This document shows, in pieces, positions 2,360 through 16,702 of a DNA stretch of 64,000 nucleotides. Positions within the stretch are counted from its first letter, which is position 1. Each line of letters begins with the position of its first letter. The position numbers and the translations under genes are program-made. Under the pieces are notes generated by a model. It did no database searches, was not told the origin of the DNA, and saw only the letters and a list, made by a program, of their open reading frames with translations. This DNA is from Candidatus Bathyarchaeota archaeon (GTDB lineage: Archaea > Thermoproteota > Bathyarchaeia > Bathyarchaeales > Bathycorpusculaceae): the NCBI GenBank assembly GCA_963739305.1, contig CAVTZU010000017.1:1-64000 (forward strand). The letters are read 5' to 3'.

Positions 2360-2435
2360 TTTTCGATTCCTCTTGTGCGCGCATTTCTTCATGACTATCT
2401 AGTTAAACTAGGCATTTCCACTCAGATAGATTTCA

Positions 2436-2443
2436 GCGCGCGC
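2436..2443. repeat. Alternating (GC)n junction palindrome
   Basis: GCGCGCGC inside perfect palindrome TCAGCGCGCGCTGA; intergenic; a 6-mer also at 2377-2382. Confidence 0.8.
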
Positions 2444-2460
2444 TGAGGGAATGGCGTTGC

Positions 2461-2664
2461 TTATAGCGAGCGCGTGTGCGCGTGTCTTTCTGAATGCAAT
2501 TGTCCACCCGTTGCCCAATTGCTCTTTGGCGCTTCATAAATGACGATCTCGACTGCTTCCTTGGGAACTCCTAAATCTTCAAACACTTTAGTTATCCCTT
2601 CGACTGTTTTCTTCTTGTTCTCAGGGCTCATGCCCTCCCAAACAGAAACTTGAACTATTGGCAT
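2461..2664 (-). CDS. 4-oxalocrotonate tautomerase family protein
   Basis: N-terminal M-P (catalytic Pro1), 67 aa, C-terminal NWATGG motif. Confidence 0.9.
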   Translation of the reverse strand: MPIVQVSVWEGMSPENKKKTVEGITKVFEDLGVPKEAVEIVIYEAPKSNWATGGQLHSERHAHTRSL

Positions 2665-2712
2665 TTCATTTTTCCTTCAAATAACACTGCTATTTCGCCT
2701 AATTAATATAGT

Positions 2713-2721
2713 GCGCGCGCG
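2713..2721. repeat. Alternating (GC)n junction motif
   Basis: GCGCGCGCG directly abutting the integrase remnant. Confidence 0.8.
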
Positions 2722-2955
2722 AAGGCGACGATAGAGTACCACAGGACGAAGGATATTCTCTATGTGATGAGGTTATTGGGACACAAAAGCATAGCCAATA
2801 CGTTAATCTACACGCAGTTAGTGGAGTTTGAAGACGACGACAAATATTGCACTGAAGTCGCCAATAATGTTCAGGACGCCAGAAAACTTCTGGAAACTGG
2901 GTTCGAGTACGTCTGTAGTCATGGGGATGAGATGCTATTCAAAAAACGAAAATAG
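2722..2955 (+). pseudogene. Tyrosine recombinase/integrase C-terminal remnant
   Basis: In-frame KATIEYHRTKDILYVMRLLGHKSIANTLIYTQL contains box II LLGH and the catalytic Tyr; the upstream R and HxxR parts are missing. Confidence 0.85.
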
Positions 2956-2962
2956 GGTTGAT

Positions 2963-2971
2963 CGCGCGCGC
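2963..2971. repeat. Alternating (GC)n junction motif
   Basis: CGCGCGCGC 7 bp after the integrase remnant stop codon. Confidence 0.8.
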
Positions 2972-3033
2972 TTTTACATTTGACATTCTATTATGATTCA
3001 TAATGTAGTCTTCAATACTCTTCTTACCTAATT

Positions 3034-5850
3034 TTGAAGCGGGCCAAAACACTAAAATCCATTTTCAGGCCATTCAATTCTTGGAAGGCGAGTCCATTGA
3101 AACTTGGTTTGCCCACTAAGCCAGCCTTGGTGGGTAGGGATTCGGAAATTGAGCAGCTTATACAGCATCTAGATTCTGCTTTGCATGGAAAAGGAACCAC
3201 AGTTTTTATTCATGGGGAAGCAGGCGTTGGAAAGACGGGATTGGTCAACGAGTTTCTGGCCCTTGCAAAGAAAATGGGGGCGGAGGTTCTCTGCGGTTGG
3301 TGCTTAAGCGAGGCAGCCATCCCTTACTTTCCTTTCACAGAAGCCTTCAACACGTATATGTCAACAACGAGCGACGCGAAAGCAAAATCCAATGTGACAA
3401 AGCAGCTAGGAATCACAGGATGGTTGAAAGGAGGAAGTTTGACAAAAGAGTCCATGACGCTGGGAATCACTGGATGGTTAAGAGGAATCGAGTTGACAGA
3501 AAAGTCCGAGACACAAGGACTCTTTTCAACTCCTGAAATAGAGAGGGACAAAACATTTGAAGCCGTAGCAAAAGCTCTTCTTCAGTTGTCTACACAAAAA
3601 CCTCTAGTCCTTTTCTTGGATGACCTACACTGGGCAGACCACCTGAGCCTAGCGCTAATTCATTACGTGTCCAGAAAATGTAGAAACTCTCGACTTCTAA
3701 TAATCGGAACATATAGACCAGAAGAAACAGTTCCAACCGAAAAGAAAAAGCTCCATCCCCTCGAAGAAACAATGTTTTCCATGAGCCGGGAAGACCTGCT
3801 AATCAAGATGGAGCTGAAAAGTCTAAAGCGCAATGAACTATCAGAGCTTGTAACATCCATATTTCACGCTTCCGTCGGTGAAGAGTTTGTGGAAAGGCTC
3901 TACAAAGAGACAGAAGGAAACCCCCTGTTTGCGCTCGAAACGCTCAACCTTCTTATTGAAGAGGGTTTTCTCTCGGAAAATGAAGGCCAATGGATACTTA
4001 CAACTCCAACGGAGAAATTAGGAATCCCATCAAAGATCCATGAAGTCATTACTCGAAGAATAGCGAGATTAGAACGCGAAGAACGAAGACTGCTCGAGCT
4101 AGCTGCTGTCAACGGCCATTCTTTTGACCCAAATATCTTGAGTAAAACTTTGGCAACGGACATAACTAGCGTCCTGCAGACGCTGGTTGAAATCGAGAAG
4201 ATGCATAGACTGATACGTTCTGAAGACTCAAAATTCGAGTTCACGCATCACAAAATAAGAGAAGTGATCTATTGGAATTTGCCAAGCGAATTGAGAAGGA
4301 TATACCATCTCAAGACCGCAAATTGCCTCGAGCAGGTTCTTACCGAAAAAACCTCAGATGGTTACCTTGCTGAGATCGCCCATCACTACATTGAGGGGAA
4401 GGCTCCTGAAAAAGCATTTCATTACCTTGTTAAGCTTGGAGAAAAGAGTGTAAACACCTACGCAAGCGTGCAAGCAGTTGAGTACCTAGACAAGGCTTTA
4501 GAAACTGCGCAAAAAATACCCAGTCTCGCTACAGACATAAATCTTGCCAAAATCCGCAAACAACGCGGCATAGCTTGGCTGCAACAAGATGAAAAGGCAA
4601 AAGCCCGAAAAGAATTCAATTTGTTGCTGCAAAATGCAAAGGCTATCAATGACGAATCAATGATCGCAGAAGCGCACTATTACTTGGGCATTGCTTATGA
4701 GGCATATTTCGGAGAAACGGAAGACGCTATGGAACATCTCACTACGGCAGTGGAAATGATTCGGAAGACAGGCAACAAACCTTTGGAAGCCAGAAGTTTG
4801 GGAGCGATTGGCACTACACTTATGTGGGGTCTGGATACTATGGACGAAGGCCACATGCGGCTCGAAGAATCTACTATAATAGCCAGAGAGATAGGTGACA
4901 AAGCGCTCGAGGCAGACAAGATGTGCGATCTCGGATTGTACTACAACTGGAAAGGCGAATTTAATCGAGCCAAAGAAAACGTTAACAAGGCGCTTGCACT
5001 AAATGAAGAAGTTGGGAGCATCCCAATAGAAACATTCGGATTATTAGTTTCTAGCATGGTCCTCGCTGGTAATGGAGACTACAACGAGGCAATCTCAACT
5101 GGACAGAAATGTCTCCAACTTGCCCGAGATTGTGGAAGCTGGTCTACCGTTTCAATGGTCCTTAATACCCTCGGTTGGATTTATCATGACTTGTCAGACA
5201 TCGAACTTGCCGTAAGATACAACAACGAAGCAATAGAAAATGCTGGAGAACACGGAAAAAGCAGGGCTAGTGGTGCAGTGCCCATGTCTTTGCTAAACTT
5301 AGGAATGGACTATCTATACAAAAATGACTATGAGAAAACAGAAAAATACTTCAAAGAAGTAATCAACCAGTATCAGCAACATCGGCTAGGCTGGTGGCGC
5401 ATCGAGACCCGCATGCTCTTGGGTCGTGGAGAAATATCGCTTGCCAAAGGCGACTACACACAGGCATTGAAATTCGCCGAAGACTCTTTGACCATATCCA
5501 AAAAAGCAGACGCTAAGAAGTACATCGCAAAGGGTTTGAAGCTGAAAGCTGAAATCTTGTCAATAACGGGCAACGCTAAGAAAGCAATCGGGTTAATGCA
5601 GAACGCTTTAAAATTGGTGCAAGAACTGGGCAACCCACCCCTACTTTGGCAAACCCATTACAGCCTCGGTGCTTTACTCGAAGAACACGGGAAACAACAA
5701 GAAGCCAATAAACACTATGCTGAAGCAATACTCCTCATAGAAGAGACAGCATCAAAACTCAAAGACACGTCTCATAAGAACACTCTGTTAATTGCTCTGC
5801 AGACCATGGCAATACATGACGCTTATGCCAGAACAAAACCAACACCATAA
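3034..5850 (+). CDS. STAND-class (AAA_16/MalT-like) NTPase with C-terminal TPR repeats
   Basis: LVGRD, Walker A GEAGVGKT, Walker B LFLDDLHWAD, GNPLF, FTHHKIRE, then helical TPR-like repeats; start codon uncertain. Confidence 0.88.
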   Translation: MKRAKTLKSIFRPFNSWKASPLKLGLPTKPALVGRDSEIEQLIQHLDSALHGKGTTVFIHGEAGVGKTGLVNEFLALAKKMGAEVLCGWCLSEAAIPYFPFTEAFNTYMSTTSDAKAKSNVTKQLGITGWLKGGSLTKESMTLGITGWLRGIELTEKSETQGLFSTPEIERDKTFEAVAKALLQLSTQKPLVLFLDDLHWADHLSLALIHYVSRKCRNSRLLIIGTYRPEETVPTEKKKLHPLEETMFSMSREDLLIKMELKSLKRNELSELVTSIFHASVGEEFVERLYKETEGNPLFALETLNLLIEEGFLSENEGQWILTTPTEKLGIPSKIHEVITRRIARLEREERRLLELAAVNGHSFDPNILSKTLATDITSVLQTLVEIEKMHRLIRSEDSKFEFTHHKIREVIYWNLPSELRRIYHLKTANCLEQVLTEKTSDGYLAEIAHHYIEGKAPEKAFHYLVKLGEKSVNTYASVQAVEYLDKALETAQKIPSLATDINLAKIRKQRGIAWLQQDEKAKARKEFNLLLQNAKAINDESMIAEAHYYLGIAYEAYFGETEDAMEHLTTAVEMIRKTGNKPLEARSLGAIGTTLMWGLDTMDEGHMRLEESTIIAREIGDKALEADKMCDLGLYYNWKGEFNRAKENVNKALALNEEVGSIPIETFGLLVSSMVLAGNGDYNEAISTGQKCLQLARDCGSWSTVSMVLNTLGWIYHDLSDIELAVRYNNEAIENAGEHGKSRASGAVPMSLLNLGMDYLYKNDYEKTEKYFKEVINQYQQHRLGWWRIETRMLLGRGEISLAKGDYTQALKFAEDSLTISKKADAKKYIAKGLKLKAEILSITGNAKKAIGLMQNALKLVQELGNPPLLWQTHYSLGALLEEHGKQQEANKHYAEAILLIEETASKLKDTSHKNTLLIALQTMAIHDAYARTKPTP
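3406..3507 (+). repeat. Intragenic diverged tandem duplication (54-bp period)
   Basis: LGITGWLKGGSLTKES / LGITGWLRGIELTEKS, similar at DNA level. Confidence 0.85.
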
Positions 5851-5851
5851 T

Positions 5852-5859
5852 GCGCGCGC
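5852..5859. repeat. Alternating (GC)n junction motif
   Basis: GCGCGCGC one base after the STAND gene stop codon; a 6-mer follows at 6342-6347. Confidence 0.8.
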
Positions 5860-6402
5860 TTTCCTTTTTCATGGTATAGTTTGCAGGATTGCCATCAGAA
5901 TAGGACATTAGATTTATTAGTGGTACTGTCGGAGCATGCCAGTTATAGCGAACTGGTTTGACGGTAGGCCGAACACGTTAGTGTCAAGTGACCGGAATAC
6001 ATTGATACAGAGAAAAAAAGGAGAGTTGCGGGTGATGTCTCCATTAGCCTAGGATTCAACTGTCATCCCTGGCTTTTTGGCATATATCCCCGGTCAGTGG
6101 TCGAACCACAGGTCTCTGCATGAACCATGATATCAGCATTCAAACATTCCTACAGGGTTGGGCGGTTGGATTATTTCCTCGCACCCGCTGAAATCGGCTT
6201 GACTTTTTCCCATGGTCTTTTGAATATGAAGAGTTTTGTCGTGCAGAGGGCTTATGAAGTCGCATCGTTGGGGCTGAGGATTGACGAGCAAATCGTCTTC
6301 AAGGAGATTGCCAAGGTTTCATAGGAAATAACGAGTCGTTTGCGCGCTAGGCTGCGCAGAAGAGAATGTTTTAATTTGTTCATCCCCTTCTTAATCGTCT
6401 GT

Positions 6403-7194
6403 ATGGAGCAAGCAGGTTTCAGCGAAGAGCCGAGACGTCAGCCAATCCGGCGAAGCTTCATAGTCGTTCTATGGATCTGTCTGCTCTTGTTCTCGTCCTT
6501 CGTAATCGTATTGCTAGCACAAACCTTCTTGAGACCGCCGATACGTGAGAACATATCAAGTTCAGACTGGAGCGGATACGTTGTTTTCTCAGATTCAGTG
6601 AACCCTGCGCCTGTGATAAGAAACGTCAGCGCGTCTTGGATCGTTCCGACAGTGTCAGTCTCTCGAAGAGACACATACTCGGATGTGTGGATAGGCGTCG
6701 GAGGGCAATTTGACAATTCCCTCATTCAAACCGGAACCGAGCAGGACTCAGAAAACGGCAAACCTGTGTATCTAGCATGGTACGAGCTTCTGCCCGACTA
6801 CTCAATTACGATAGTGGCAGTGAACGTGTCAGCGGGAGACACGATGACAGCTTCAATAAGTCTGCTAGATGCTGGAACCAACGAATGGCTTGTCGAAATC
6901 GCTGACGCCACGAATGGGCAGAGCTTCAGTCAGAGCTTCGTCTATGTTTCATCTCGACTCTCTGCCGAATGGATTGTCGAGAGGCCCACTGTCAACGATG
7001 CCCTGACCACGCTGGCAGACTTCGGGAGCGTAACTTTCACTGACATCAAAGTTTCAACAGATTCCGTTTCTGGAACCGCAGCAGATTTTCCATTTTCTCA
7101 GGTCACGATGTATGATCGTCAGAACAATCAGCTTGTCACCGTGTCTCAGCTAGCTTCACGTGGAACAACTTTCAACGTGGCCTACTTGCCTTGA
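6403..7194 (+). CDS. Membrane-anchored G1 family glutamic peptidase (peptidase A4/eqolisin-like)
   Basis: N-terminal TM helix; SSDWSGY, WIGVGG, LIQTGT (catalytic Q), AWYE, SAEWIVERP (catalytic E). Confidence 0.88.
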   Translation: MEQAGFSEEPRRQPIRRSFIVVLWICLLLFSSFVIVLLAQTFLRPPIRENISSSDWSGYVVFSDSVNPAPVIRNVSASWIVPTVSVSRRDTYSDVWIGVGGQFDNSLIQTGTEQDSENGKPVYLAWYELLPDYSITIVAVNVSAGDTMTASISLLDAGTNEWLVEIADATNGQSFSQSFVYVSSRLSAEWIVERPTVNDALTTLADFGSVTFTDIKVSTDSVSGTAADFPFSQVTMYDRQNNQLVTVSQLASRGTTFNVAYLP

Positions 7195-7566
7195 GTGCGT
7201 TAAGGGGCGACGTTGGCATCTAGAACGTGTGCAGAGAAATTTGAAGGGGAGAAGGAGTGCATCCGCAGACCCGAGGGAGAAAGGAGAAAATGAAGCGGGG
7301 AAAATAAATGTGTTTTGCGGCTTTGCACTCCTTGTCTTTCTTGTAGTGTCCCACTCATTCATTAGATTTGGTTTGTAACACCTGAGCGTGCATTTGATAA
7401 GTTCTTGAGCAGCCACGTAGAAGACATTGCCCAAAGACTGAAAAAAGGGGTTATGGCATAGATTAGGGTCGACGAATACCGCAAGCCAACACAATGAATC
7501 GTCATACTTCTGCCGTAAAGCTCGGGTTCGAAAAAGCTAAAAGGTGCTCGGGCAACGTGTAATCTC

Positions 7567-8640
7567 ATGAAATATTCTTTTAAAATAGGGTCAGTTTGGG
7601 GAATTCCCATTGAATTGCACCTGACCTTCATTCTTCTAATAATCGGGGTTCTCGTCCTTTCTTACCCTCAGTTTTACCTTTTTGTCCTTGTTTTGTTTCT
7701 ATTCATCTTCGTCGTTCTCCATGAACTGGCGCATTCGGTCGTTGCGCGTCATTACAGAATTCAGGTGCGGAAGATAGTTCTTTACCCCATAGGCGGGGCT
7801 TCTGAGATTGAGGAGATATTTGATAACCCACGCGTAGAGTGGCGAGTTGCTATTGCTGGGCCTTTGACCAGCTTTGCGATTGGCGGTTCTCTTCTTGCTA
7901 TTTCCAGAATTTTCGTCGTGGAAGTGCCGAGAACGGCTCTCGGGTCGTCTCTCTCTACCGTTGGAAGCCTCGCGCTCGATCTTGGACTGTTGAACTTGTT
8001 GCTTGGGGCATTCAACTTGATCCCTGCTTTTCCGATGGATGGAGGCAGAGTTTTCAGGGCTTTTCTGGCGGAACACATGAATTTCTCCGATGCGACGAAA
8101 TATGCAGCTTTCTTGGGAAGGTTGTTTGGGATAGTCATGGCCATTGTCGGGTTTATCTTTCCGAGTTACTTTTTGTTGATCGTCGTAGGGATTTTCGTCT
8201 ACATAGGCGCTACCGAAGAAGCCGAATCGACTATCGTGTCAACAACGTTGGCGAGAGTGAGAGTCAGAGATGTTATGTCTTCCGAGGCGGCGACGGTTAC
8301 TCTTGATGAAACTCTTGACGAGGCTTTGGAGACGATGTTTAAGGCACGATACCACGATGCCTTGGTGGAGAAGGATAGTGAGTTGTTGGGAATCGTGACC
8401 TGGGATGAGATAATGAAGGTTAAGAAAGAGCAGAGAAGCCTGATGATGATTGAGCAGCTTCCTCTGATTCAGGCTTCTGTTCTGGTTGACGATGCTGTTC
8501 TTGAGGCGCACAAGGTGATGCTCAAACAGAGAATAGACTTGGTTCCAGTGGTTGAGAAGGACAATCCGCGAAAGATCCTTGGCGTTCTGACGAGCGAAGG
8601 AGTTGCCCTTGCATACGAGAAAGCGAAAACGCTCCGATGA
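7567..8640 (+). CDS. Site-2 protease (M50) with CBS domains
   Basis: HELAH, AIAGP, FNLIPAFPMDGG; C-terminal CBS pair. Confidence 0.93.
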   Translation: MKYSFKIGSVWGIPIELHLTFILLIIGVLVLSYPQFYLFVLVLFLFIFVVLHELAHSVVARHYRIQVRKIVLYPIGGASEIEEIFDNPRVEWRVAIAGPLTSFAIGGSLLAISRIFVVEVPRTALGSSLSTVGSLALDLGLLNLLLGAFNLIPAFPMDGGRVFRAFLAEHMNFSDATKYAAFLGRLFGIVMAIVGFIFPSYFLLIVVGIFVYIGATEEAESTIVSTTLARVRVRDVMSSEAATVTLDETLDEALETMFKARYHDALVEKDSELLGIVTWDEIMKVKKEQRSLMMIEQLPLIQASVLVDDAVLEAHKVMLKQRIDLVPVVEKDNPRKILGVLTSEGVALAYEKAKTLR

Positions 8641-8669
8641 CTTCAAACTGTAGAGTCGGTGTCGTATTA

Positions 8670-8678
8670 GCGCGCGCG
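8670..8678. repeat. Alternating (GC)n junction motif
   Basis: GCGCGCGCG, intergenic, just before a TTAAATA TATA-like box. Confidence 0.8.
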
Positions 8679-8739
8679 AGATTAAATAGTTCGAAACAAG
8701 TATCCGTACAGTGACTGTTGAAATGAACATTGAGAGACG

Positions 8740-9204
8740 ATGAATTTGGAGAGCATTGTCGGAGTCCTAAAGGGACTGAAAGGTAGAACAGCAGACATGA
8801 TCTATGACTTGTTCTTCACGGAAAGAAGAGTGATAGCCGCAATCGTGCTTCACCCGTCAGACTTTGCCGACCAATATGGCAAGCTAGATCCTACAACTCT
8901 AGTGGTGGGAGGTTACTTCAAACAGAGAGAAATCAAGGTTCGATCCCTACAGCTGATGGATGAAAGGAGATCAGCCTTCGAAGGCAAGACGGCGGATGAG
9001 ATCGCTGCTTCACACAAGAACAACGCAGAGATCGAATATGAAAACGTCACTTCGGTCCGAATCAAGAAAGGTATCTTAGGAACGTCTCTAGAATTTGTAG
9101 TTCAAAATCCTCCTGGCAAGAAGATAAACTTTTCACTTGACGGAAATGAAGTGGACGAAGCCGAAGGATTGATGAAGAAGGTTCTTTCAGACAAGGCGAG
9201 ATGA
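8740..9204 (+). CDS. Hypothetical protein (possibly PH-like fold)
   Basis: Clean ORF; YDLFFTERRVI and IEYENVTSVRIKKG are reminiscent of PH-like domains. Confidence 0.65.
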   Translation: MNLESIVGVLKGLKGRTADMIYDLFFTERRVIAAIVLHPSDFADQYGKLDPTTLVVGGYFKQREIKVRSLQLMDERRSAFEGKTADEIAASHKNNAEIEYENVTSVRIKKGILGTSLEFVVQNPPGKKINFSLDGNEVDEAEGLMKKVLSDKAR

Positions 9205-9453
9205 TTCTTTTCAGGACGGGGTGCGGTCTACCCCTGAAACTTTTGTAACGTTTTTTGTAATGTTGCCTGGTACCTCATTTGTTCTTTGAACAGTTTTCGG
9301 TCCATGGTGAACGAAGTTTCTGCTCACGATGTGGAGTTTTTCTCTTACAAAATGGTTTTGATGTGGTCTTTGGGGCGTTCGAAATGTTTTTTTGCGTCTT
9401 TCAGTTTATGCGTTGGTGAGCGCGTGGGACATGGTTGTAACGGGGATAACAGG

Positions 9454-10170
9454 ATGAGTCGGAGTTTAGGGTTCTCGGCGTTGTTTGTTTTCTCTATTTT
9501 GACAATTTCCTTTTTCGGTTCATATGGATGTTGGTTTGCGGGAGCAAACGCTAGTGTTAGTGGGCTTCCTCCGATGAATTTGGCAGTTGTCGGGGTCAAT
9601 GGCACCGAGGTTGTCGTGTTGAATGAAACTGGTATCGCATCGTTGCCTTCTTATTCGGGTTGTGGCGGTTATGAGAACCAAATCGGGTTGGTGAAGGAGT
9701 ATGGCAACTATACGGGTGTGTCTTTGTGGACTCTTTGTAGCTTGGTTGGGGGGTTGACGAACACGAGTGTTGTGAAGGTGACGGCAGCGGATAACTACAC
9801 GATGAACTTCACGTATGCTCAGGTTCAAGGCGAATTTTTAGCCTATGACATAGCAACTGGGCTACCGACAAATCACACTCTACCATTCGTGCCGATCATT
9901 GCGTACTATCTCAACGGTTCCAACATTCCTTCAGCTGAAGGTCCACTCAGACTGGCCATAGTTAGTCCCGAAGGATACGCGACACCATCGGCTTACTGGG
10001 TAAAAGAGGCGATTCGGATTGAGATCATCGAAACCAGCGTCCCAGAGTATCCTCTCGCGGCCTTTCTGCTATCATTTCTGTTGACGTCTTTGGCGACGAT
10101 GTTGAGCTTGAAGGTTCGTGGCATTGGGCGACGAACCTCTTGTCTTCCTGCGCATTCTTGGAAAAAGTAG
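9454..10170 (+). CDS. Secreted/surface protein with molybdopterin-oxidoreductase-like domain and VPEYP+TM C-terminal anchor
   Basis: Signal-like N-terminus; YTGVSL, TAADNY, IIAYYLNG, GPLRL, WVK motifs; PEF-CTERM-like tail. Confidence 0.7.
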   Translation: MSRSLGFSALFVFSILTISFFGSYGCWFAGANASVSGLPPMNLAVVGVNGTEVVVLNETGIASLPSYSGCGGYENQIGLVKEYGNYTGVSLWTLCSLVGGLTNTSVVKVTAADNYTMNFTYAQVQGEFLAYDIATGLPTNHTLPFVPIIAYYLNGSNIPSAEGPLRLAIVSPEGYATPSAYWVKEAIRIEIIETSVPEYPLAAFLLSFLLTSLATMLSLKVRGIGRRTSCLPAHSWKK

Positions 10171-10245
10171 TTTCTAATGGGTTTCAGAACACGTTTTCTT
10201 GCGAGCCTTCTTTTTGCTGTTATTTCCGCGAAAGGTCTTTTTGTG

Positions 10246-10800
10246 CTATTTGCCTATCATTACTTCTGTTGCTTTTATGATCGCTTCTACGGTGTCACCG
10301 ACTTTGATGTTCAAGTCTTCAACTGCTTCCGTTGATATGAGTGCCGTCACAACAGCTGGCACGGTTATCTCAACTTTGACCTTTGCGGTTATGCTGTCTT
10401 TTTGCACGGCCGTGACTTTGCCTTTCAATCGGTTTCTCGCGCTAATTTTCACTCCTTTCACCTCCAAATGTCTCTTGTTTGACAAGACTTGGCTCAAGCC
10501 GTTTTCGACCAGCTCGTATTTGTTCAGGAGGCTGGTTCCAAGTTTCGTTAGCCTTGCTCCCCCGCCGCCTGATTTGCCGCCTTTGAACGTTTCCAAGACC
10601 GGATTGCCCAGTGTTCTTTCTATGTTTTTTGCGTAGCCCCAGACGTAGCGGTAGGACATGCCGAGCTCTTGTGCAGCCTTCGAGATTGAACTGTGCTTTT
10701 GAATGCTCATTAGGATTTCTGCTCCGCCTTCGCCGAGAATCGGTTTCCCTTTGTATTCTAGCCAGACTTTGAATGAGGTTTTGAGCTTGTCTTCGGACAT
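10246..10800 (-). CDS. modE: ModE-family Mo/W-responsive regulator (HTH + TOBE)
   Basis: SISKAAQELGMSYRYVW, GGKSGGGARLT, C-terminal SARNRLKG mop/TOBE domain. Confidence 0.9.
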   Translation of the reverse strand: MSEDKLKTSFKVWLEYKGKPILGEGGAEILMSIQKHSSISKAAQELGMSYRYVWGYAKNIERTLGNPVLETFKGGKSGGGGARLTKLGTSLLNKYELVENGLSQVLSNKRHLEVKGVKISARNRLKGKVTAVQKDSITAKVKVEITVPAVVTALISTEAVEDLNIKVGDTVEAIIKATEVMIGK

Positions 10801-10824
10801 TGGTTTCAGTTGTGTCGCGGAAGC

Positions 10825-10862
10825 TTTATATGTTTACTCAATATGTATGACGAAACATAACG
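10825..10862 (+). promoter_or_regulatory. TATA box and putative ModE operator of the tup operon
   Basis: TTTATA at 10825-10830; imperfect palindrome CAATATGT-N8-ACATAACG (10839-10862) abutting the tupA start; resembles ModE boxes. Confidence 0.6.
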
Positions 10863-11858
10863 GTGAAAAGAATGAAAGCATGGCAAAAAATACTGTCAGC
10901 AGCCGTCATAGCGACAATCATAGTTATTTTGGGTACAATGGCTTACTTCCAATTTTCTCCAACAACACATCTAAGAATATCAACCACAACCAGTCTGTAC
11001 GACACCGGACTGCTAGACCAAATAAAAACCCAATATGAATCAAACCACAAAGTCTCGCTTGACATAATTGCCCAGGGAACTGGACTGGCACTCGCAAGCG
11101 CAGGAGCTGGGGACGCAGACGTTGTTCTAGTTCATGCGCCATCATCCGAATATCCTTACTTAGCCAATGGCACATTAGTGTGCAGAAAGATCATTGCCTA
11201 CAATTACTTCGCCATAGTTGGACCAAGCTCTGACCCAGCTAAAATTACCGGCAAAAACGCGGCAGAAGCGTTGAAAAGTATACTAGCATATGGGCGAAAC
11301 CAGACAAGTGGAACAATAGTGTGGGCGTCACGAGGAGACAATTCTGGCACCTTCACAAAAGAGGTCAGCTTGTGGAAGTCAGCAGGCTACAATCAGTCAA
11401 AAATCTCCACAGAATCTTGGTACGCTAGCACGGGCTCAGGTATGGCTCAAACGCTTTCAGTAGCAAACCAAAAAGATGCATACACACTTACGGACTTAGG
11501 CACCTACCTTTCATTGTCGCATGGTGGTACGATCACGCTTGCGCCTCTAATTTCTGGCTCCGACTATTCATTACTTAACGTCTACAGCATTTATGCAGTA
11601 AATCCGCAGAAAATCAGCAACGTCAGTTTCACTGAAGCCATAGACTTCATAAAATGGATGATATCCGATACGGGTCAACAAACCATAAGCAACTTTGGAA
11701 CAGGCAACTATTCACAAAGCCTGTTCTACGGTGCGGTTCAACCTCTCAAGAACAATAGTCCACAGCCAGACGTTTCATGGATTAAGACTTACGCCTTCTT
11801 CAACAGCACAGAATGTCCCACACAATATCAGGACGACCATTCGGAGCTATACCCCTAG
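10863..11858 (+). CDS. tupA: Tungstate ABC transporter substrate-binding protein
   Basis: TTTS motif (STTTSLYDTGLLD), GTG, VHAP, SRGDNSGT; N-terminal anchor. Confidence 0.9.
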   Translation: MKRMKAWQKILSAAVIATIIVILGTMAYFQFSPTTHLRISTTTSLYDTGLLDQIKTQYESNHKVSLDIIAQGTGLALASAGAGDADVVLVHAPSSEYPYLANGTLVCRKIIAYNYFAIVGPSSDPAKITGKNAAEALKSILAYGRNQTSGTIVWASRGDNSGTFTKEVSLWKSAGYNQSKISTESWYASTGSGMAQTLSVANQKDAYTLTDLGTYLSLSHGGTITLAPLISGSDYSLLNVYSIYAVNPQKISNVSFTEAIDFIKWMISDTGQQTISNFGTGNYSQSLFYGAVQPLKNNSPQPDVSWIKTYAFFNSTECPTQYQDDHSELYP

Positions 11859-11869
11859 GAACAAAATGC

Positions 11870-12589
11870 ATGAACGAAATATTGGACGGCATTATTCGCG
11901 CTTTACAAATGATCTTCACAGGTGACCCCACTGTGTGGGGAGTGGTCTTGCGTTCCCTCTTTTTCTCAGGAGTAGCAACCATACTTGCGGTGCTTTGGGC
12001 AACACCAATCGCGATGTTGATAAGCTTGAAAGATTTTCGCGGCAAATCAATAATAAAGAGTTTCTTCAATGCCATGATAGGAATGCCCACTGTAGCATTG
12101 GGTTTGATACTTTTCTTATTTTTCACGAAGGCAGGTCCATTAGGGTTTCTTGGGTTGCTTTTCACACCTGGCGCCGTTATCTTGGGTGAGGCTGTGCTTG
12201 TGACCCCGTTGATAGTTAGCATTGCGACAAACGCCATTGAAGCTGTGGACCCAGAAATGTTGAATCTCGCGAGGACTCTGGGAGCTTCGGAATCTCAAGC
12301 TTCGATCGCTGTTTTGAAGGAAGCATTCAACGGGATCATCTTTTCTAACGTTGCCGGATTCAACAGAGCCATCGCAGAACTGGGTGTTGCTTTGATGGTC
12401 GGTGGAAACATAGCGGGGTTAACTGATGTTCTAACAACTGACATTTCAAAGTTCACGTCACGGGGAGACTTCGCTATCGCAATAGCGCTTGCAGTCATTC
12501 TTCTCGTAATAGTCTTTGGAATAAACCTAATAATCATAATAGCTAGGAACCCAAAGGTTCTCCTAACTCTAGGCAGGATGCCTCAATAA
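11870..12589 (+). CDS. tupB: Tungstate ABC transporter permease
   Basis: Hydrophobic; GPLGFLGLLFTP, ARTLGAS, MVGGNI; operon context. Confidence 0.9.
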   Translation: MNEILDGIIRALQMIFTGDPTVWGVVLRSLFFSGVATILAVLWATPIAMLISLKDFRGKSIIKSFFNAMIGMPTVALGLILFLFFTKAGPLGFLGLLFTPGAVILGEAVLVTPLIVSIATNAIEAVDPEMLNLARTLGASESQASIAVLKEAFNGIIFSNVAGFNRAIAELGVALMVGGNIAGLTDVLTTDISKFTSRGDFAIAIALAVILLVIVFGINLIIIIARNPKVLLTLGRMPQ

Positions 12590-12624
12590 GTACGAATCAG
12601 AGATTAAGATGGTCGCAAACCTAA

Positions 12625-13686
12625 ATGACGTCGATTGCCGAGTTGGAGAATCTGACCCTACTCTTCGGGAAAAGAGTCGTCCTTGATGATATCACGCTCC
12701 AGATTGAAGAAGGTCAAATATTAGGCTTGTTGGGGCCAAACGGTTCAGGAAAAACCACTCTGTTGAAAGTCTTAGCGTTTCTTCTTAGACCCACAAAGGG
12801 CAAGATCATTTTTCAACGCGAAGAAGTTGGTAATAAAAATCTGGAGCGCCTGAGGCTACAGAGCGCGCTAGTTCACCAGAGAACGCTTCTTTTTAGCACT
12901 TCAGTGTTTAACAATGTCGCTTACGGTTTGAGGATGCGGAAAATTCCAAAGGTCATGATTGAACAACAAGTAAAAGACGCTTTGAAGCTTGTGAAGTTGG
13001 AGGGTTTCGAGAATCGCAGTGCAAAGAAGCTTTCAGGAGGAGAACAGCAGCGGTTGGCTTTGGCCAGGGCTTTGGTACTTAAGACCAAGCTTCTTCTTTT
13101 GGATGAGCCTACGGCTAACTTGGATCCGAAAAATGCTTCGATTATTGAGGACATAATCGTTGCCGCTAATAGGGAACTGAAGACAACAATTGTGATGGCT
13201 ACTCACAACATGTTGGCAGCTAAAACATTGCCAAACAGAATAGCTCTGATAGACAATGGACACATAACCGAAGTAGAGTCGGCGGAGAACATTTTTAGAA
13301 GGCTTTCGAGAAACCTGGCAAGCTTTGCTGCAGTTGAAAATACCTTTAAGGGAACTGCAAGATTAACCGATGCTGGGATGGCAATCGTCGATATTGGGAA
13401 TGGTACTCAGATAGAAACTACCTTCAATAAGCAAGGTTCCGTTTCCATTTTCATCAGTCCTCAGGAAATAATTCTCTCCAAAAAGCCCCTAGAATCCAGC
13501 GCTAGAAACGTGCTTAAAGGAAAAATAACTCAAATTTCAGATTTGGATTCTGTTGTAAAGCTTACTGTTGATGTGGGGAAACCTTTTGTGGTTCAGATAA
13601 CGAAGCGGTCTTTCGGTGATATGTCACTTAATTTGGGAACTGAGGTTTTTACAACTTTTAAGGCATCAAGTGTTCAAGAAATCTAA
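12625..13686 (+). CDS. tupC: Tungstate ABC transporter ATPase with TOBE domain
   Basis: GPNGSGKT, LSGGEQQR, LLLDEP, SSARN TOBE domain. Confidence 0.88.
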   Translation: MTSIAELENLTLLFGKRVVLDDITLQIEEGQILGLLGPNGSGKTTLLKVLAFLLRPTKGKIIFQREEVGNKNLERLRLQSALVHQRTLLFSTSVFNNVAYGLRMRKIPKVMIEQQVKDALKLVKLEGFENRSAKKLSGGEQQRLALARALVLKTKLLLLDEPTANLDPKNASIIEDIIVAANRELKTTIVMATHNMLAAKTLPNRIALIDNGHITEVESAENIFRRLSRNLASFAAVENTFKGTARLTDAGMAIVDIGNGTQIETTFNKQGSVSIFISPQEIILSKKPLESSARNVLKGKITQISDLDSVVKLTVDVGKPFVVQITKRSFGDMSLNLGTEVFTTFKASSVQEI

Positions 13687-13735
13687 GCGGTTTTCTTGCC
13701 TCATTTCAGTTTCAGAAATTATGGCTAAGGGAACA

Positions 13736-13745
13736 GCGCGCGCGC
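13736..13745. repeat. Alternating (GC)n junction motif
   Basis: AGCGCGCGCGCT palindrome, intergenic. Confidence 0.8.
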
Positions 13746-13872
13746 TAAACTTCCCACCTGATCTTTCACCGTAAATTGTCGTTTTAGATGTTTATCTTCT
13801 ATCATGGAAATCTTGGTGGACTGTTTTTATACGAGCTTGAAGTATCCATCAGGGAGAACAAGGCAGTACCCA

Positions 13873-14508
13873 ATGACACTCATCATAGATGATGCGGGTA
13901 GCGGCGACCTGCTTTTCGGCGTGGTTATAGCTGCATTTCGTGATGAGACCCAAGAATTCAGATATGATCTTATAGGCGTGGAATTTTTCCAGTCCAGCCG
14001 TTTCTACCAAAAAGAGTATCTATTCCAATCCTCAAGAATTGTGTCCCAACTAATCGTTGGATTGAAAATCAAGTCAAGAGAAGAAATCCACATTTGCAAG
14101 AGCTACATCTTTGATGAAGCTGTAGACGATTTGCGAAGGACCTACGGTGATGACCGAGTTCACAGAGTTGAAGTGACTGGTGAACCACAGAGACTTGCAG
14201 AAATAGCTTACCTCGACGAGATAAGAAACTTGGGTTATGAACCCATAGTCGATCGAGAAGACAAAAGGGCACAAAGCTTCTTCCACATGATGCGTTGGTT
14301 GGAAGAAAATCCAGAAAGGCTGAGATACGCCAAGACTGGTTGGCCACGCCTGTCAAGATACCGTCTATTCAAATCCTATGATCAGAGCAATATGTACAGT
14401 GCAGTCTGCACTGATTGCGGGAATAAATGCGAAGTTCCATTCAAGCCTGACCAAAATAGGCCAGTTTACTGCCAGGCATGTTGGACAACACGGAGACCCT
14501 CTCGATAG
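13873..14508 (+). CDS. Hypothetical protein, RNase H-like N-terminus fused to a CxxC-x17-CxxC zinc-binding domain
   Basis: IIDDAGSGDLLFGVVI resembles the RNase HII DEAGRG motif; C-terminal CTDC-GNKCEVPFKPDQNRPVY-CQAC. Confidence 0.7.
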   Translation: MTLIIDDAGSGDLLFGVVIAAFRDETQEFRYDLIGVEFFQSSRFYQKEYLFQSSRIVSQLIVGLKIKSREEIHICKSYIFDEAVDDLRRTYGDDRVHRVEVTGEPQRLAEIAYLDEIRNLGYEPIVDREDKRAQSFFHMMRWLEENPERLRYAKTGWPRLSRYRLFKSYDQSNMYSAVCTDCGNKCEVPFKPDQNRPVYCQACWTTRRPSR

Positions 14509-14850
14509 ACACATCAGCTGAGGATTAAGGGATCATACAAGGAATCCTTGGCATACGCCCCTAGATACGACCCGACCTTTCTCTGTTGATGGTTTTCTAG
14601 CTGGGAAAAAAGTTTCCGCTCAAACAGATCGAATTTCCTTTTCCCAGTTAACGCTTTCGTTCCTACTGACTTTTAAGTGAGAGAAAAAAGGGGATTGTGC
14701 GGGAGATATCTCCATTGAGACCACCTAAGGCTTTAGTTGATAGCACGTGGAGACACAGACCTCTACCGCCACTGACACAACCCCATTTTTCTATCTTCCA
14801 GTGGAATAGAAGTGCTTTCTTCTGTAGGCTACGACTGCCAGTAGTGTTGT

Positions 14851-14859
14851 CGCGCGCGC
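14851..14859. repeat. Alternating (GC)n junction motif
   Basis: CGCGCGCGC 14 bp past the stop of the next (minus-strand) gene. Confidence 0.8.
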
Positions 14860-14873
14860 TTCGTATTTCATGC

Positions 14874-15203
14874 CTATTCCTTCCTAGCCCGCGCCGCACC
14901 AAGTTGCTTAAAAAGCTCCTCCTTCAATTCTCGTTCAACAGAAACTGAAGATCCCAAGTCAATGACTAAAATCGCCAAGACGACACTCCTGACGTATTTT
15001 CTTATTGTCTTCCATTCATCTGCTTCAATGGGTCTTGGAGCCATGATAAACTCTCTGACTTTTGGCAAGAGATGTTTAGGAACTGGAATACGTTTTCGAC
15101 ATTCATGTTCTCTTGATTCCAGTTCTACCTTATCTTCACCATAGTGAATTATCACATCAAGGCGAATGCTTAGAGCTCTGCGTATTACATCGGACTCATT
15201 CAT
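14874..15203 (-). CDS. Hypothetical protein (single-gene module between GC motifs)
   Basis: Protein-like charged composition; fills the segment between two (GC)n motifs. Confidence 0.55.
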   Translation of the reverse strand: MNESDVIRRALSIRLDVIIHYGEDKVELESREHECRKRIPVPKHLLPKVREFIMAPRPIEADEWKTIRKYVRSVVLAILVIDLGSSVSVERELKEELFKQLGAARARKE

Positions 15204-15236
15204 ACCTTTGAAGACTCTCCATGGTAAACACATAAA

Positions 15237-15245
15237 GCGCGCGCG
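15237..15245. repeat. Alternating (GC)n junction motif
   Basis: GCGCGCGCG; GCGCGATAAA occurs at both 15241 and 15269. Confidence 0.8.
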
Positions 15246-15347
15246 ATAAAGTTTTATCCCCCTTTTTTGCGCGATAAACTTTACAAGCTTGTCCCTGATT
15301 CAGGGAGCGTTGCAGAGGCGATAGTCATCGACGGGCGCGAATTTCTA

Positions 15348-15902
15348 ATGACGGGAGCACTTCAGGTAGTCAAGACACTGAGGCTTTACAGATTTCTGAG
15401 CATCCTTAGTACTGAGCATCAATTCAGTGACTATTTCAGGGGTTTTGAAAAAGTTGAGGCTGTTCGCAGAATTTTCGGCGACAGGACTGAGCAGGTGCTT
15501 CACGGTTTGAAAGTTGAGTTCCTTTGGGCAGGAGGCTACATGGGAGTTAACAGCGCAAACGGGCATCTTATGGCAAATCCCAATTACTTGAACAAAGGGG
15601 ACAAAACAGACATCTACCTAGACATAATTCACGAACTCGTCCACGTGAAGCAGTTCATGGAGGGAAAAGACTTGTTTGACACTCATCACAGTTACACTGA
15701 GAGATCAACCGAGATAGAAGCCTACCGATATGCTGTTGAGGAAGCTAGAAGATTGGGTCTTAGTGACGCAAGAATATGCGAGTATCTCAAAACCGAGTGG
15801 ATGAGTGAAAAGGAGTTGAATCAGCTCGCATCTACTGTTAATGTTCACTGCAAACAAGTACAGAACATGCAAAAACAGGGCATCAGCAAACCAGATTCTT
15901 AG
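15348..15902 (+). CDS. Hypothetical HExxH zinc-metallopeptidase-like protein (start uncertain)
   Basis: IIHELVHVKQ followed by EIEAY. Confidence 0.7.
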   Translation: MTGALQVVKTLRLYRFLSILSTEHQFSDYFRGFEKVEAVRRIFGDRTEQVLHGLKVEFLWAGGYMGVNSANGHLMANPNYLNKGDKTDIYLDIIHELVHVKQFMEGKDLFDTHHSYTERSTEIEAYRYAVEEARRLGLSDARICEYLKTEWMSEKELNQLASTVNVHCKQVQNMQKQGISKPDS

Positions 15903-16127
15903 CTCATTTTCAATTACGGGATTTTGCCTGCAAAGCGTGGATGATAAGAAGACGCGATGAGCTATGAACGCATTATCGGGGGTAATCACATTAGCTACTA
16001 CCGTAGACCAAAGAGATATGGAAGCCTGAAGGCATAAGAGAAAGTATACCACCTAAACGCCGAGTTCATTCACCTAAGGCTTTATAAAGGGTATTTAAGC
16101 ACTTGAGTAATAAGAAGAGGGTGCCGG

Positions 16128-16688
16128 ATGCCCAAGAGCAAGGCCATCATAAAAATCGAAAACGTCGTTGCCTCTGCCACGCTCAATCAAAAGGTTGACT
16201 TGAACGCCGTGGTGAAAAGCTATCCGGGAGTCGAATACCGTCCGGAACAGTTCCCCGGCCTAGTTTACAGGCTCAAAAGGCCGAAGACTGCTACGTTGAT
16301 TTTTAATTCTGGGAAAATGGTCTGCACGGGCGCAAAATCTGAAAAAGAATCCCGTAGAGCCGTTATGAAAGTCGTGAAAGAGCTCAAGAAAGGCGGCATA
16401 ATAATCATAAGCAAGCCTGAACTGAAGATACAGAACATCGTTGCCTCAGCAAGCCTCGGAGGAATGATAGACCTCGAGAAAGCCGCCTACACGCTTGGAA
16501 AAACGATGTACGAACCCGAACAGTTTCCAGGCCTGATCTACAGGATGGACGTGCCTAAAGTTGTTATACTCTTGTTCGCGAGCGGGAAGCTCGTGTGCAC
16601 CGGAGCAAAGAAAGAACAGGACGTTTTCGACGCGGTTCACAAGCTCCACAAGATTCTGGAAGAGCAAGAACTAATATTCTATGAATAG
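16128..16688 (+). CDS. tbp: TATA-box binding protein
   Basis: Two repeats of NVVAS/NIVAS...YxPEQFPGL...GKxVCTGAK. Confidence 0.98.
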   Translation: MPKSKAIIKIENVVASATLNQKVDLNAVVKSYPGVEYRPEQFPGLVYRLKRPKTATLIFNSGKMVCTGAKSEKESRRAVMKVVKELKKGGIIIISKPELKIQNIVASASLGGMIDLEKAAYTLGKTMYEPEQFPGLIYRMDVPKVVILLFASGKLVCTGAKKEQDVFDAVHKLHKILEEQELIFYE

Positions 16689-16702
16689 ACTCTTGTCTTT
16701 TT

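Follow-up and report, generated by a model that had tools for sequence, protein, structure and literature searches.

In sediments and peat, Bathyarchaeia count among the most abundant of the uncultured archaea, and to our knowledge the routes by which they acquire and shuffle genes have not been established. The stretch of DNA analysed here (the window; 64,000 nucleotides) comes from a peat Bathyarchaeia metagenome-assembled genome (MAG; G000, 97% complete, contamination 7.8%) and carries towards its left end a series of short runs of alternating G and C. A sequence-only reading had proposed that these runs mark the junctions of accessory gene modules and are crossover cores or insertion scars of an integron-like cassette system, which raises the question of whether the word is a junction mark at all and, if it is, of what kind of system. 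The motif sits where optional gene blocks have been inserted, swapped or cut off and therefore looks like a joining point of gene shuffling. On balance we favour the view that GCGCGCGC is a hyper-abundant extragenic palindrome of a Bathyarchaeia lineage and a break-and-join point of its flexible genome.

Abundance and form of the motif

All of the runs to which the sequence-only reading had drawn attention are present, eight of 8 to 10 bp in the left cluster and two 6-mers at 2377 and 6342, and its total of 12 window runs of at least 8 bp, where about one was expected, was reproduced (the remaining four are at 21151, 57277, 57403 and 59429). GCGCGCGC has 14 overlapping matches in the window against 0.64 expected from 100 dinucleotide-preserving shuffles (maximum in any shuffle 3), and CGCGCGCG has 7 against 0.62. 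The earlier figure of 11 intergenic runs is less firm; all eight left-cluster runs do fall between called genes, but those at 57277 and 57403 lie inside a crude ORF call (57238-58410), so that the intergenic runs number 9 to 11 of the 12. The single run placed within a coding sequence of the core, at 21151, does belong to a genuine gene, since the reading frame around it aligns with motif-free orthologues in four related loci.

The excess extends to the whole genome. G000 contains 351 alternating-GC runs of at least 8 bp, 304 of them (87%) non-coding and 47 coding, in a genome with a non-coding share of 22% by our own crude gene calls, which were also used for G001, a complete genome of the same genus with 455 such runs. 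When counted against Markov models, GCGCGCGC has 359 matches in G000 versus 22-26 expected (orders 0-3), and 292 versus 3-12 in its non-coding DNA (orders 0-2). The 419 motif sites of G001 are scattered over the entire chromosome in many islets, and across a sample of the order motif richness is patchy: numerous genera in two families are rich, a third family is so only sporadically and another is poor. The phase of maximal runs is fixed (178 are GCGCGCGC and 24 CGCGCGCG) and A-GCGCGCGC-T is the usual form, with no conservation or composition signal in the flanks of G000 sites beyond 2-3 bp. At 207 of 327 sites in G000 and at 281 of 419 in G001 the palindrome does not reach past the 8-mer, and an extension of at least 3 bp is seen at only 14 and 7 sites, respectively. 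No Rfam family matched in the range of the finding, and GGAGAYRTCTCC, considered as a second genome-wide palindrome, was ruled out with only 5 copies in G000.

The motif is extragenic, lineage-specific and present in hundreds of copies, in all of which it is like REP/BIME elements. REP elements are hotspots of rearrangement and IS insertion; they are imperfect folding palindromes of 20-40 nt spread by a Y1 transposase (RAYT), whereas only 8-10 bp are conserved at the motif, its palindrome is not extended and G000 has no Y1_Tnp match. A defined 8-bp palindrome with an A/T flank preference is typical of a dimer site, and the motif might instead be a protein-binding boundary element, the site of a dimeric chromatin, insulator or silencing protein that accompanies acquired genes or is favoured beside them, in which case the coincidence with breakpoints would be secondary. 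We regard this as unlikely. Its occurrence in all three spacer types (0.49 per kb in tandem, 0.45 in divergent and 0.74 in convergent spacers), its avoidance of the 40 bp ahead of start codons and its frequency within 40 bp past stops are as such an element would have it, but no fixed distance to any promoter element was found and the flanks are bare past 2-3 bp. The two candidate binders tested, zf_Tbcl_2 and an orphan HEXXH-like family, both occur in motif-poor genera as well and are not specific to motif-rich genomes.

Anatomy of the left cluster

The tautomerase, STAND ATPase, protease, Mo/W and Zn-finger modules named by the sequence-only reading all have Pfam support. At the left edge a GCGCGC 6-mer (2377..2382) lies 18 bp past the stop of ORF 719-2359, and the first full run (GCGCGCGC, 2436..2443) is placed between convergent genes at a point to the left of which metagenome contigs differ, with a loose end at 2442. 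The tautomerase gene of module 1 (2461..2664, minus strand; PF01361, E 1.4e-10) is followed by GCGCGCGCG at 2713..2721, the exact 5' truncation point of an integrase fragment. What is left of this tyrosine recombinase (2764..2955, plus strand) are the C-terminal 63 residues; its identity as an integrase stub holds through 27 tblastn matches to the family in G000 and G001 and through an intact paralogue on contig C9 that matches PF00589, although the stub has no Pfam match of its own. Where the stub is cut, the C9 paralogue continues without a motif.

The next run (CGCGCGCGC, 2963..2971) is the left border of a replaceable cassette and the point up to which a 98% identical copy on contig C13 is homologous. 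Its cargo is a STAND ATPase with AAA_16 and TPR domains (3034..5850, plus strand; Pfam) and its right border is GCGCGCGC at 5852..5859, one base past the STAND stop codon; C13 holds a different cassette between the same two motifs, with two NosD/beta-helix genes in place of the ATPase. A multi-copy non-coding unit of ~180 bp (5852..6032) begins at the right-hand motif, and its first 65 bp are also found on C12, C20, C27 and at C17:64769. The protease module (6340..8640, plus strand) comprises a peptidase A4 (6340-7194) and an M50+CBS protein (7567-8640), both by Pfam, and is followed by GCGCGCGCG at 8670..8678, an assembly branch point given that C13 terminates exactly here. Beyond it the Mo/W block (8740..13686, plus strand) contains an ORF without assigned function, a weak molybdopterin-oxidoreductase match and ModA/B/C, together with a ModE-like regulator on the minus strand (10246-10800; Pfam).

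A population variant has its left break at the next run (GCGCGCGCGC, 13736..13745), with a loose end at 13745, and this run precedes a treble-clef zinc-finger gene (13804..14508, plus strand; Pfam). An integrase gene on the minus strand is cut off after four codons by CGCGCGCGC at 14851..14859, and the homologue of this gene on contig C30 is intact and motif-free. The motif-to-motif fragment that begins here (14860..15236, minus strand) consists of a 119-aa ORF (14874-15233) and the four integrase codons, is 91% identical to C30:2960-3339, and is closed by GCGCGCGCG at 15237..15245, with the promoter-like repeat TAAAGTTTTATCC directly after. An orphan gene of a multi-copy family (15267..15902, plus strand; weak HEXXH-type matches only) completes the cluster; the conserved core, syntenic with related loci from 16072, opens with the TBP promoter and the TBP gene (16072..16688, plus strand; gene at 16128-16688). 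A split tRNA considered at 14679-14735 / 16070-16100 was rejected, as ARAGORN reports no tRNA in the joined form of the relatives and the repeat is a promoter-like element.

Population data were read for the contig-covered parts of the window. Contigs from four peat runs have breaks at 2442, 5853/5861 and 13744/13745, the runs all belonging to one study in which the source sample may be included; three of the runs contain a joint from 13744 to 16071 that skips 13745-16070, and two contain a joint that goes back from 6032 to 5852. The depth of the STAND cassette is 11-17 versus ~20-65 in most flanking bins, about a third of that of its neighbours.

Accessory bias and breakpoints

Synteny was based on 1337 reciprocal best hits between G000 and G001, 'accessory' meaning without a reciprocal best hit in one other species (median amino-acid identity 74%). 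Motif-bearing spacers in G000 make up 10 of 754 syntenic spacers, 22 of 239 at synteny breaks, 90 of 666 with one accessory neighbour and 95 of 553 with two, or 10/754 conserved syntenic spacers versus 207/1458 others; the corresponding counts in G001 are 13/732, 39/238, 129/722 and 110/558. The bias towards accessory genes (Fisher p = 6e-28 in G000 and 1e-35 in G001) has the same direction in six of six spacer-length bins of both genomes and reaches p < 0.05 in ten of the twelve. Per kb the motif is ~4.5 times rarer in conserved syntenic than in other spacers, and among 1716 intergenic 8-mers none is as strongly depleted from syntenic spacers as the motif and the words that overlap it (ratio 4.5; median 1.01, 95th percentile 2.4). 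Equal frequency in core spacers is not what was found, which favours the motif as a mark of module junctions.

Intervals of 60-6000 bp from motif to motif number 220 in G000 and 298 in G001, with a median of 1.1-1.3 kb, and cover 16-21% of the genome. A reciprocal best hit exists for 34-38% of the genes inside them versus 59% genome-wide, and 38 of 86 and 42 of 105 multi-gene intervals are same-strand. Simple insertions of at least 1 kb between adjacent core orthologues have a junction motif in only 2/18 and 1/24 cases, so that the motif belongs to multi-gene variable islets and not to every insertion.

Homology between close variants breaks at the motif, in keeping with the junctions originally proposed. 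It is the top 8-mer at the ends of internal repeats of G000 (10 of 151 ends versus 0.35 expected), and 45 of 1139 repeat ends in G001 lie within 3 bp of it versus 0.25% of random positions. Between loci L001 and L009 (93-94% identical) six of seven non-core block ends are found no more than 3 bp from a run in one or both genomes, and a solo motif appears once as a ~10-bp indel. Contig C3 has a single motif, an empty site, at the place where C2 has a 4.2-kb insert flanked by two motifs, with cohesin/dockerin and SBP genes and no recombinase as cargo. Units that recur at unlinked loci of G001 (~300 bp at three loci, ~950 bp at two) are motif-bounded at both ends, except for the degenerate left end of one 300-bp copy, while their outer flanks mostly differ. 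The idea that modules are gained or lost at motifs is supported by C3/C2 and by the window and C13, but most repeat ends lie away from the motif (141/151 in G000 and 1094/1139 in G001).

Variant contig pairs, which may be strain haplotypes within one assembly (contamination 7.8%), show seven indels of at least 100 bp, only two of them motif-bounded; of the other five, three have promoter-like direct repeats at their borders, while a tRNA end bounds the fourth and an integrase stop codon the fifth. In aligned variant pairs totalling 101 kb, 19 motifs are plainly conserved, and a single substitution or a 1-bp indel separates the copies at 4 sites, one of which appears twice among five rows. Conservation of 19 of 24 internal sites between variants would suit the boundary element discussed above, but homology that ends at the base next to the motif is unlike a regulatory site, as is a motif that caps truncated genes. 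The intact homologues of these genes are motif-free, and the motif is therefore not only a pre-existing target; pure site-by-site crossover fails to explain motifs at gene truncation points.

The promoter-like direct repeats (17-27 bp, at 3 of 7 indels) indicate that short-repeat recombination is active in G000 and lend something to a passive explanation, in which a non-B (Z-DNA-prone), self-complementary and strongly pairing GC stretch of 8-10 bp is a fragile or microhomology site, prone to breakage and used by general end joining or short-homology recombination with no dedicated enzyme. G000 also encodes a complete Ku / LigD Prim-Pol / ligase-phosphoesterase operon. We nevertheless hold this explanation to be rather improbable, since a 14- to 100-fold excess with fixed phase and length goes unexplained unless repair makes the word, and since the motif beats every other 8-mer at repeat ends. 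Nor does Ku track motif richness: present in 9 of 31 relatives it appeared almost genus-specific, but across 201 genomes of the order it was found in 29, with Ku-positive G045, G070 and G035 having 6, 2 and 1 motif matches and Ku-negative G146, G180 and G212 having 262, 785 and 442. The idea that end joining by Ku/LigD creates the motif was rejected when the link vanished in this order-wide sample; despite the operon in G000, the motif differs from an expected NHEJ scar in that Ku is not co-distributed with it.

Candidate enzymes, related systems and a working model

What is observed comprises the excess of the motif, its preference for intergenic and accessory DNA, homology breaks that coincide with it to the base, and cassette pairs of the filled/empty, replacement and multi-locus kinds; we infer that the motif is a reaction site rather than a passenger, as well as every enzymatic detail given below. 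No enzyme for the motif was found among the candidate families searched in G000 and relatives. Serine recombinase, resolvase, TnpB, rve, Y1 (PF01797) and IS110 have 0 matches in G000, and DDE_Tnp_1 has only 2. Multi-copy families adjoining motifs were rejected as recombinases because they are ordinary cargo (NosD/beta-helix, dockerin, wHTH, GT4, ABC, Alba and radical SAM). Tyrosine-recombinase counts in motif-poor genera (G012, 11; G026, 10) reach the level of those in the genus, integrase genes systematically adjoining motifs were not found, and only 3-4 of 27 copies of the integrase-stub family have a run right after the stop codon. Cas1 or a casposase was likewise set aside, G000 having only two fragments. 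Cargo between motifs is unrelated and flanks are unconserved, which together with the two DDE_Tnp_1 matches in G000 distinguishes the motif from a MITE or insertion sequence.

The pdif (Xer) modules of Acinetobacter plasmids are genes bounded by a short recombination site and found in varied contexts, and the motif is like pdif in that copies of a short site bound modules in varied contexts. A pdif site has 28 bp, with two arms for XerC/XerD and a spacer, whereas nothing past 8-10 bp is conserved at the motif. Likeness to integron cassettes is also considerable: a recurring site bounds promoter-independent modules of one to a few genes, filled and empty states occur, and the same module is seen in different contexts. 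A true integron or CALIN, with IntI capture at attC/attI and the GC run as crossover core, would account for the cassette-like behaviour of C3/C2, the window and C13, and the multi-locus units of G001, and integrons do occur in Archaea (10.1101/2022.02.06.479319). We judge it highly improbable. The integron integrase model TIGR02249 has a best match of 34.9 bits in all of G000 against a cut-off of 265, its 11 weak matches all being ordinary tyrosine recombinases, and the motif has no attC-like extended imperfect palindrome, no single array and mixed gene orientation. Without IntI, structured attC, an attI-proximal array or co-orientation it departs from integrons as characterized in 10.1101/2022.02.06.479319, and the strict integron reading of G000 is refuted on three defining features. 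The filled and empty states and varied contexts show a cassette-like way of working, not integron membership, and in its strict sense the earlier term integron-like is dropped.

The HIP1-like alternative put forward alongside it comes closer in form. Copies of HIP1, a palindrome of cyanobacteria, have been reported to bound a deletion. HIP1 (GCGATCGC) is described as an 8-bp palindrome, rich in GC, that exceeds expectation 15- to 300-fold, is conserved both in and between ORFs and is of unsettled function (PMC5861425), and two further papers tie it to two methyltransferases (PMC4390886, PMC13756078). The motif is likewise an 8-bp, GC-rich, lineage-specific palindrome over-represented by one to two orders of magnitude (>15-fold), and a word maintained by methyltransferase or repair bias, or cut and religated by a restriction-modification system ('natural cloning'), has some appeal: cutting, filling in and ligating would leave a single motif where the site is empty and two where it is filled, and G000 has a gene for an N6/N4 methyltransferase fused to an Mrr-type nuclease. 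The distribution differs, however. Set against HIP1 as described in PMC5861425, the motif lies mostly (87%) in non-coding DNA, is depleted from conserved spacers and gathers at the borders of accessory genes. Among the methyltransferases searched, none was co-distributed with it: C5 methyltransferase (PF00145) has no match in G000 or G001, and the MTase-Mrr fusion, with near-full-length matches in only 3 of 200 other genomes (G186, G201, G166) and none with this query in G003, a member of the genus, or in G180, G212, G119 and G146, the genomes richest in the motif, is sporadic and was set aside as the motif enzyme. We consider an origin of this kind quite improbable.

The break-and-join reading that we favour can be put as a model. 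DNA between two motif copies would be an exchangeable module, which could be inserted at one copy (leaving one motif at the empty and two at the filled site), give way to other DNA between those two copies, and recur at unlinked loci with one copy at each end. A break or strand exchange would take place at the palindrome such that each DNA end keeps a full copy; ends would usually be joined to another motif-bearing end and sometimes to an unrelated break, leaving a motif at a truncated gene. Each insertion would add one copy and be selected against in conserved spacers and genes, which would keep copies scarce there and let them build up in accessory DNA. More tentatively, several Bathyarchaeia lineages may possess an undescribed cassette system in which the bare 8-bp GCGCGCGC is all that is needed in cis, a putative enzyme cuts or exchanges strands there with a full copy retained on each end, any DNA between two motifs is mobile, captures duplicate the site, stray joins cap truncated genes and about a fifth of the genome is held as cassettes. 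Our literature searches found no description of the motif.

A single 8-bp word delimits 16-21% of the two genomes and is a predictor of accessory-gene location, which makes it a simple sequence marker of the flexible genome in these MAGs. It also carries a warning for assemblers and binners, as contigs of these organisms tend to end at the motif. For the biology of these archaea it offers a concrete, testable recombination substrate, and an enzyme, should there be one, would be a recombinase or nuclease whose site is unusually small and fully defined, of interest for genome engineering.

Abundance and distribution of the motif

All alternating-GC runs reported by the sequence-only reading are present in the window where it placed them, and maximal runs of at least 8 bp number 12, as it had counted: eight at 2.4-15.3 kb, one at 21151 and three at 57.3-59.4 kb, the last forming a right-hand cluster (57277, 57403 and 59429). 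The run at 21151 is the coding one in the core; four related loci align to it in frame, with other codons at this position. The intergenic placement of the others stands except at 57277 and 57403, which lie inside a crude ORF call (57238-58410) and may be intergenic if this ORF is not real. The 8-bp palindrome GCGCGCGC (the motif) occurs 14 times in the 64-kb window with overlaps counted, against 0.64 expected and a maximum of 3 in dinucleotide-preserving shuffles, and CGCGCGCG seven times against 0.62 expected. The modules named in that reading are backed by Pfam. The integrase stub, a 63-codon ORF (2764-2955), corresponds to a tyrosine-recombinase C terminus. The window also contains TBP, an archaeal 16S rRNA gene (31979-33472, minus strand) and SRP RNA (46993-47306, minus strand), the latter two 13.5 kb apart; the window contains no 23S gene, and the rRNA genes are possibly unlinked. 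The region around TBP matches Bathyarchaeia MAGs, and the assembly has about five TBP paralogues with 72-76% DNA identity (window 16082-16687, C8:38125, C11:77949, C14:49538 and C15:100546; C-numbers denote its contigs).

Across the assembly (2.32 Mb, 36 contigs) the motif was seen 359 times versus 22-26 expected under Markov models of orders 0-3, extending the excess estimated for the window, and non-coding DNA holds 292 copies versus 3-12 expected (orders 0-2). There are 351 runs of at least 8 bp; our own crude gene calls place 304 of them in non-coding DNA, which makes up 22% of the genome. Run lengths have a non-monotonic profile, with 398, 150, 202, 96 and 48 runs of 6, 7, 8, 9 and 10 bp, respectively, and only five longer. 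Phase is fixed, as 178 maximal 8-mers are GCGCGCGC and 24 are CGCGCGCG. A is preferred to the left of the motif and T to the right, with no conservation further out, and as a rule the palindrome does not extend beyond the 8-mer. Density per kb is 0.49 in tandem, 0.45 in divergent and 0.74 in convergent spacers; the motif avoids the last 40 bp ahead of start codons and is frequent within 40 bp past stop codons.

Within the genus, each of the 10 other genomes contains the motif (29-464 matches), and eight genomes from other genera of the family have 0-14 matches. In an order-wide sample of 201 genomes, compared by raw counts whatever the genome G+C, motif richness is patchy and not genus-specific: two other families include many motif-rich genera (up to 785 matches) and one entire family is motif-poor. 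The ratio of GCGCGCGC to CGCGCGCG is about 2:1 in the assembly and the same in motif-rich genomes of this sample.

Association with accessory-gene borders

A congener with a complete chromosome of 2.35 Mb (G001; 455 runs of at least 8 bp) served for comparison; genes were called identically in both genomes, and 1337 reciprocal best hits were used (median amino-acid identity 74%). Syntenic spacers, those whose orthologous neighbours are adjacent in both genomes, hold the motif in 10/754 cases in the assembly and 13/732 in G001. The corresponding figures are 22/239 and 39/238 for spacers at synteny breaks, 90/666 and 129/722 for those with one accessory neighbour, and 95/553 and 110/558 for those with two. 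The contrast between syntenic and other spacers has the same direction in all six spacer-length bins of both genomes. The 1716 8-mers found 60 or more times in intergenic DNA were ranked by depletion from syntenic spacers. GCGCGCGC and overlapping words made up 11 of the 12 most depleted, with a ratio of 4.5 for GCGCGCGC (all words: median 1.01, 95th percentile 2.4). On the closed G001 chromosome the 419 motif sites are clustered (variance-to-mean ratio 2.9 per 20 kb; median spacing 1.8 kb versus 3.9 kb for random positions), and their density correlates negatively with core-gene fraction (Spearman -0.41). Instead of forming one array, the sites are spread over many islets. By the spacer contrast, length bins, word ranking and clustering, core intergenic regions therefore do not contain the motif as often as other spacers do, so the outcome named in the sequence-only reading as refuting its proposal did not occur. 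Nine Alba paralogues are encoded in the two genomes, six of them adjoining a motif (for example, L187, 9078-9365), an unusual chromatin-protein expansion inside the flexible genome.

Breakpoints were resolved to the base using second copies of contig ends within the assembly (95-99% identity) and two related loci, L001 and L009, which share 93-94% identity. The second copies are strain variants or duplications; since many contig ends overlap at this identity, the bin seems to hold at least two strains (contamination 7.8%). Overlapping ends include C13/C17 (C17 being the contig of the window), C2/C3/C6, C23/C35 and C7/C31, and several contigs stop at the motif. C3 contains an empty site, GTA[GCGCGCGC]TGGGCAG, for which C2 has the same flanks with 4.2 kb inserted between two motifs; this insert codes for two dockerin proteins, one a cohesin/dockerin and the other a solute-binding/dockerin protein, and for no recombinase. 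C13 is 98% identical to window 1-2970 and about 5875-8677 and terminates exactly at the motif equivalent to window 8670. The STAND ATPase of the window is enclosed by the motifs at 2963 and 5852; in C13 the matching motifs enclose two NosD/beta-helix genes. Upstream of TBP, L001 and L009 share the same blocks in differing order, and 6/7 non-core block ends are no more than 3 bp away from a run in one or both loci. These comparisons (C3/C2, window/C13 and L001/L009) bear out the proposal that module borders coincide with the motif. It is also the top-ranking 8-mer at internal repeat ends of the assembly (10/151 ends versus 0.35 expected), and in G001 45/1139 repeat ends fall within 3 bp of it, versus 0.25% of random positions. 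A one-gene unit of ~300 bp is found at three G001 loci and a ~950-bp unit at two, with mostly different outer flanks; motifs bound every end of both units except the degenerate left end of one 300-bp copy.

Truncated genes, motif-free junctions and population variants

Homology between the integrase stub and an intact C9 paralogue starts at the first base past the window motif at 2713-2721, which C9 lacks. Window 14860-15236 is 91% identical to C30:2960-3339, where a 119-codon ORF adjoins an intact integrase gene; in the window this integrase retains four codons and then ends at the motif at 14851-14859, and C30 lacks the motif at either end. Similarly, an L001 motif stands where the homologous L009 ORF continues uninterrupted, and in a spacer that is collinear apart from it, L001 has an indel of ~10 bp containing a motif. 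Motif presence at these truncated genes and this indel, and its absence from the homologues, suggests that a full copy can arrive or be made at junctions with motif-free DNA; such motif-capped genes do not fit simple site-by-site crossover.

Most rearrangements are without the motif. Only 2/7 indels between variant pairs are motif-bounded and three are bounded by promoter-like direct repeats, and insertions of at least 1 kb between adjacent core orthologues have a junction motif in 2/18 and 1/24 cases. The promoter-like repeat GGGTAAAGTTTTATCC and the related GATAAACTTTAC occur at window 15246-15290, C2:12159/12751, C8:6376/9042 and C3:5664-5701, and, as direct repeats, bound 591-bp and 2665-bp indels between variant contigs. 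Of the 93 spacer occurrences of AACTTTAC in the two genomes, none is in a syntenic spacer. This repeat looks like a second junction-associated element.

Contigs from four peat metagenome runs, all of one study possibly including the source sample, were aligned to window 1-17000. Loose contig ends occur at 2442, 5853/5861 and 13745, and three metagenomes contain a joint that links 13744, within the motif, with 16071, where the conserved core starts. Depth over the STAND cassette is 11-17 versus about 20-65 in most flanking bins. A word of 8-10 bp is probably too short to cause chimeric contig joins, judging by usual assembly word lengths. Two copies of CACCTAAGGCTTTA (14679-14735 and 16070-16100) flank a 1355-bp segment missing in population variants, and the joint lacking it (14714 to 16070) occurs in three metagenomes. 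All four metagenomes also have a loose end at 14714, just past the 12-bp palindrome GGAGATATCTCC, from which the sequence continues in many different ways.

Candidate enzymes, known systems and a proposed mechanism

Tyrosine recombinases (15 matches in the assembly, 12 above cut-off) were rejected as the motif enzyme, being equally numerous in motif-poor relatives and not systematically adjoining motifs. Resolvase, TnpB, rve, Y1 and IS110 gave no match in the assembly and DDE_Tnp_1 only two; no C5 methyltransferase was found. Cas1 is present only as two fragments (C18:9381-9596 and 15069-15263, locus L228), one with internal stop codons, which look like a decayed CRISPR-Cas locus. A complete operon of LigD-type primase-polymerase, Ku and ligase-3'-phosphoesterase fusion (C32, locus L223, 8049-11120) sits between alanyl- and leucyl-tRNA synthetase genes. 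In a set of 31 relatives this operon looked nearly genus-specific; in the order-wide sample Ku (29/201, 8 genera) does not follow the motif, and end joining was set aside. A single-chain N6/N4 DNA methyltransferase fused to an Mrr-type nuclease domain (C28, locus L226, 6050-7621) occurs sporadically; among the 200 other genomes sampled from the order, G186 alone has an 80%-identical copy.

In its working the motif is closest to systems in which a short site delimits cassettes or modules; to our knowledge, it is far smaller than the delimiting site of any of these. It differs from REP/RAYT in being too short and having no stem, and the assembly encodes no Y1 transposase. HIP1 is alike in form and is conserved inside ORFs (PMC5861425), whereas the motif avoids ORFs and conserved spacers. 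Against the defining features of integrons, as set out in an archaeal-integron preprint (10.1101/2022.02.06.479319), we found no IntI, attC-like fold, array or co-orientation. The earlier interpretation thus holds for accessory-module junctions and cassette-like behaviour and fails for membership of the integron family; the observation itself is confirmed and generalised beyond the window. Full-text literature on archaeal intergenic DNA and genome palindromes yielded no description of the motif, and that on Bathyarchaeota integrons/attC or Bathyarchaeia intergenic palindromes yielded none either, so as far as these searches reach the phenomenon is undescribed in print.

We propose break-and-join at the palindrome, in which each end would keep a full motif copy, possibly by a staggered cut then fill-in or by strand exchange within the word. 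Retention by each end would explain one motif at an empty site and two at a filled one, and break-and-join would account for replacement between fixed motifs and for multi-locus cassettes. An end joined to an unrelated break would leave a motif at a truncated gene. The cassette census fits this reading: motif-to-motif intervals of 60-6000 bp (220 in the assembly, 298 in G001) have a median of 1.1-1.3 kb and occupy 16-21% of the genome, a third containing no complete gene and about a third one. Their G+C is ~3 points lower, and 34-38% of the genes inside them have a reciprocal best hit, versus 59% overall. Under break-and-join, motif copy number would grow with each capture.
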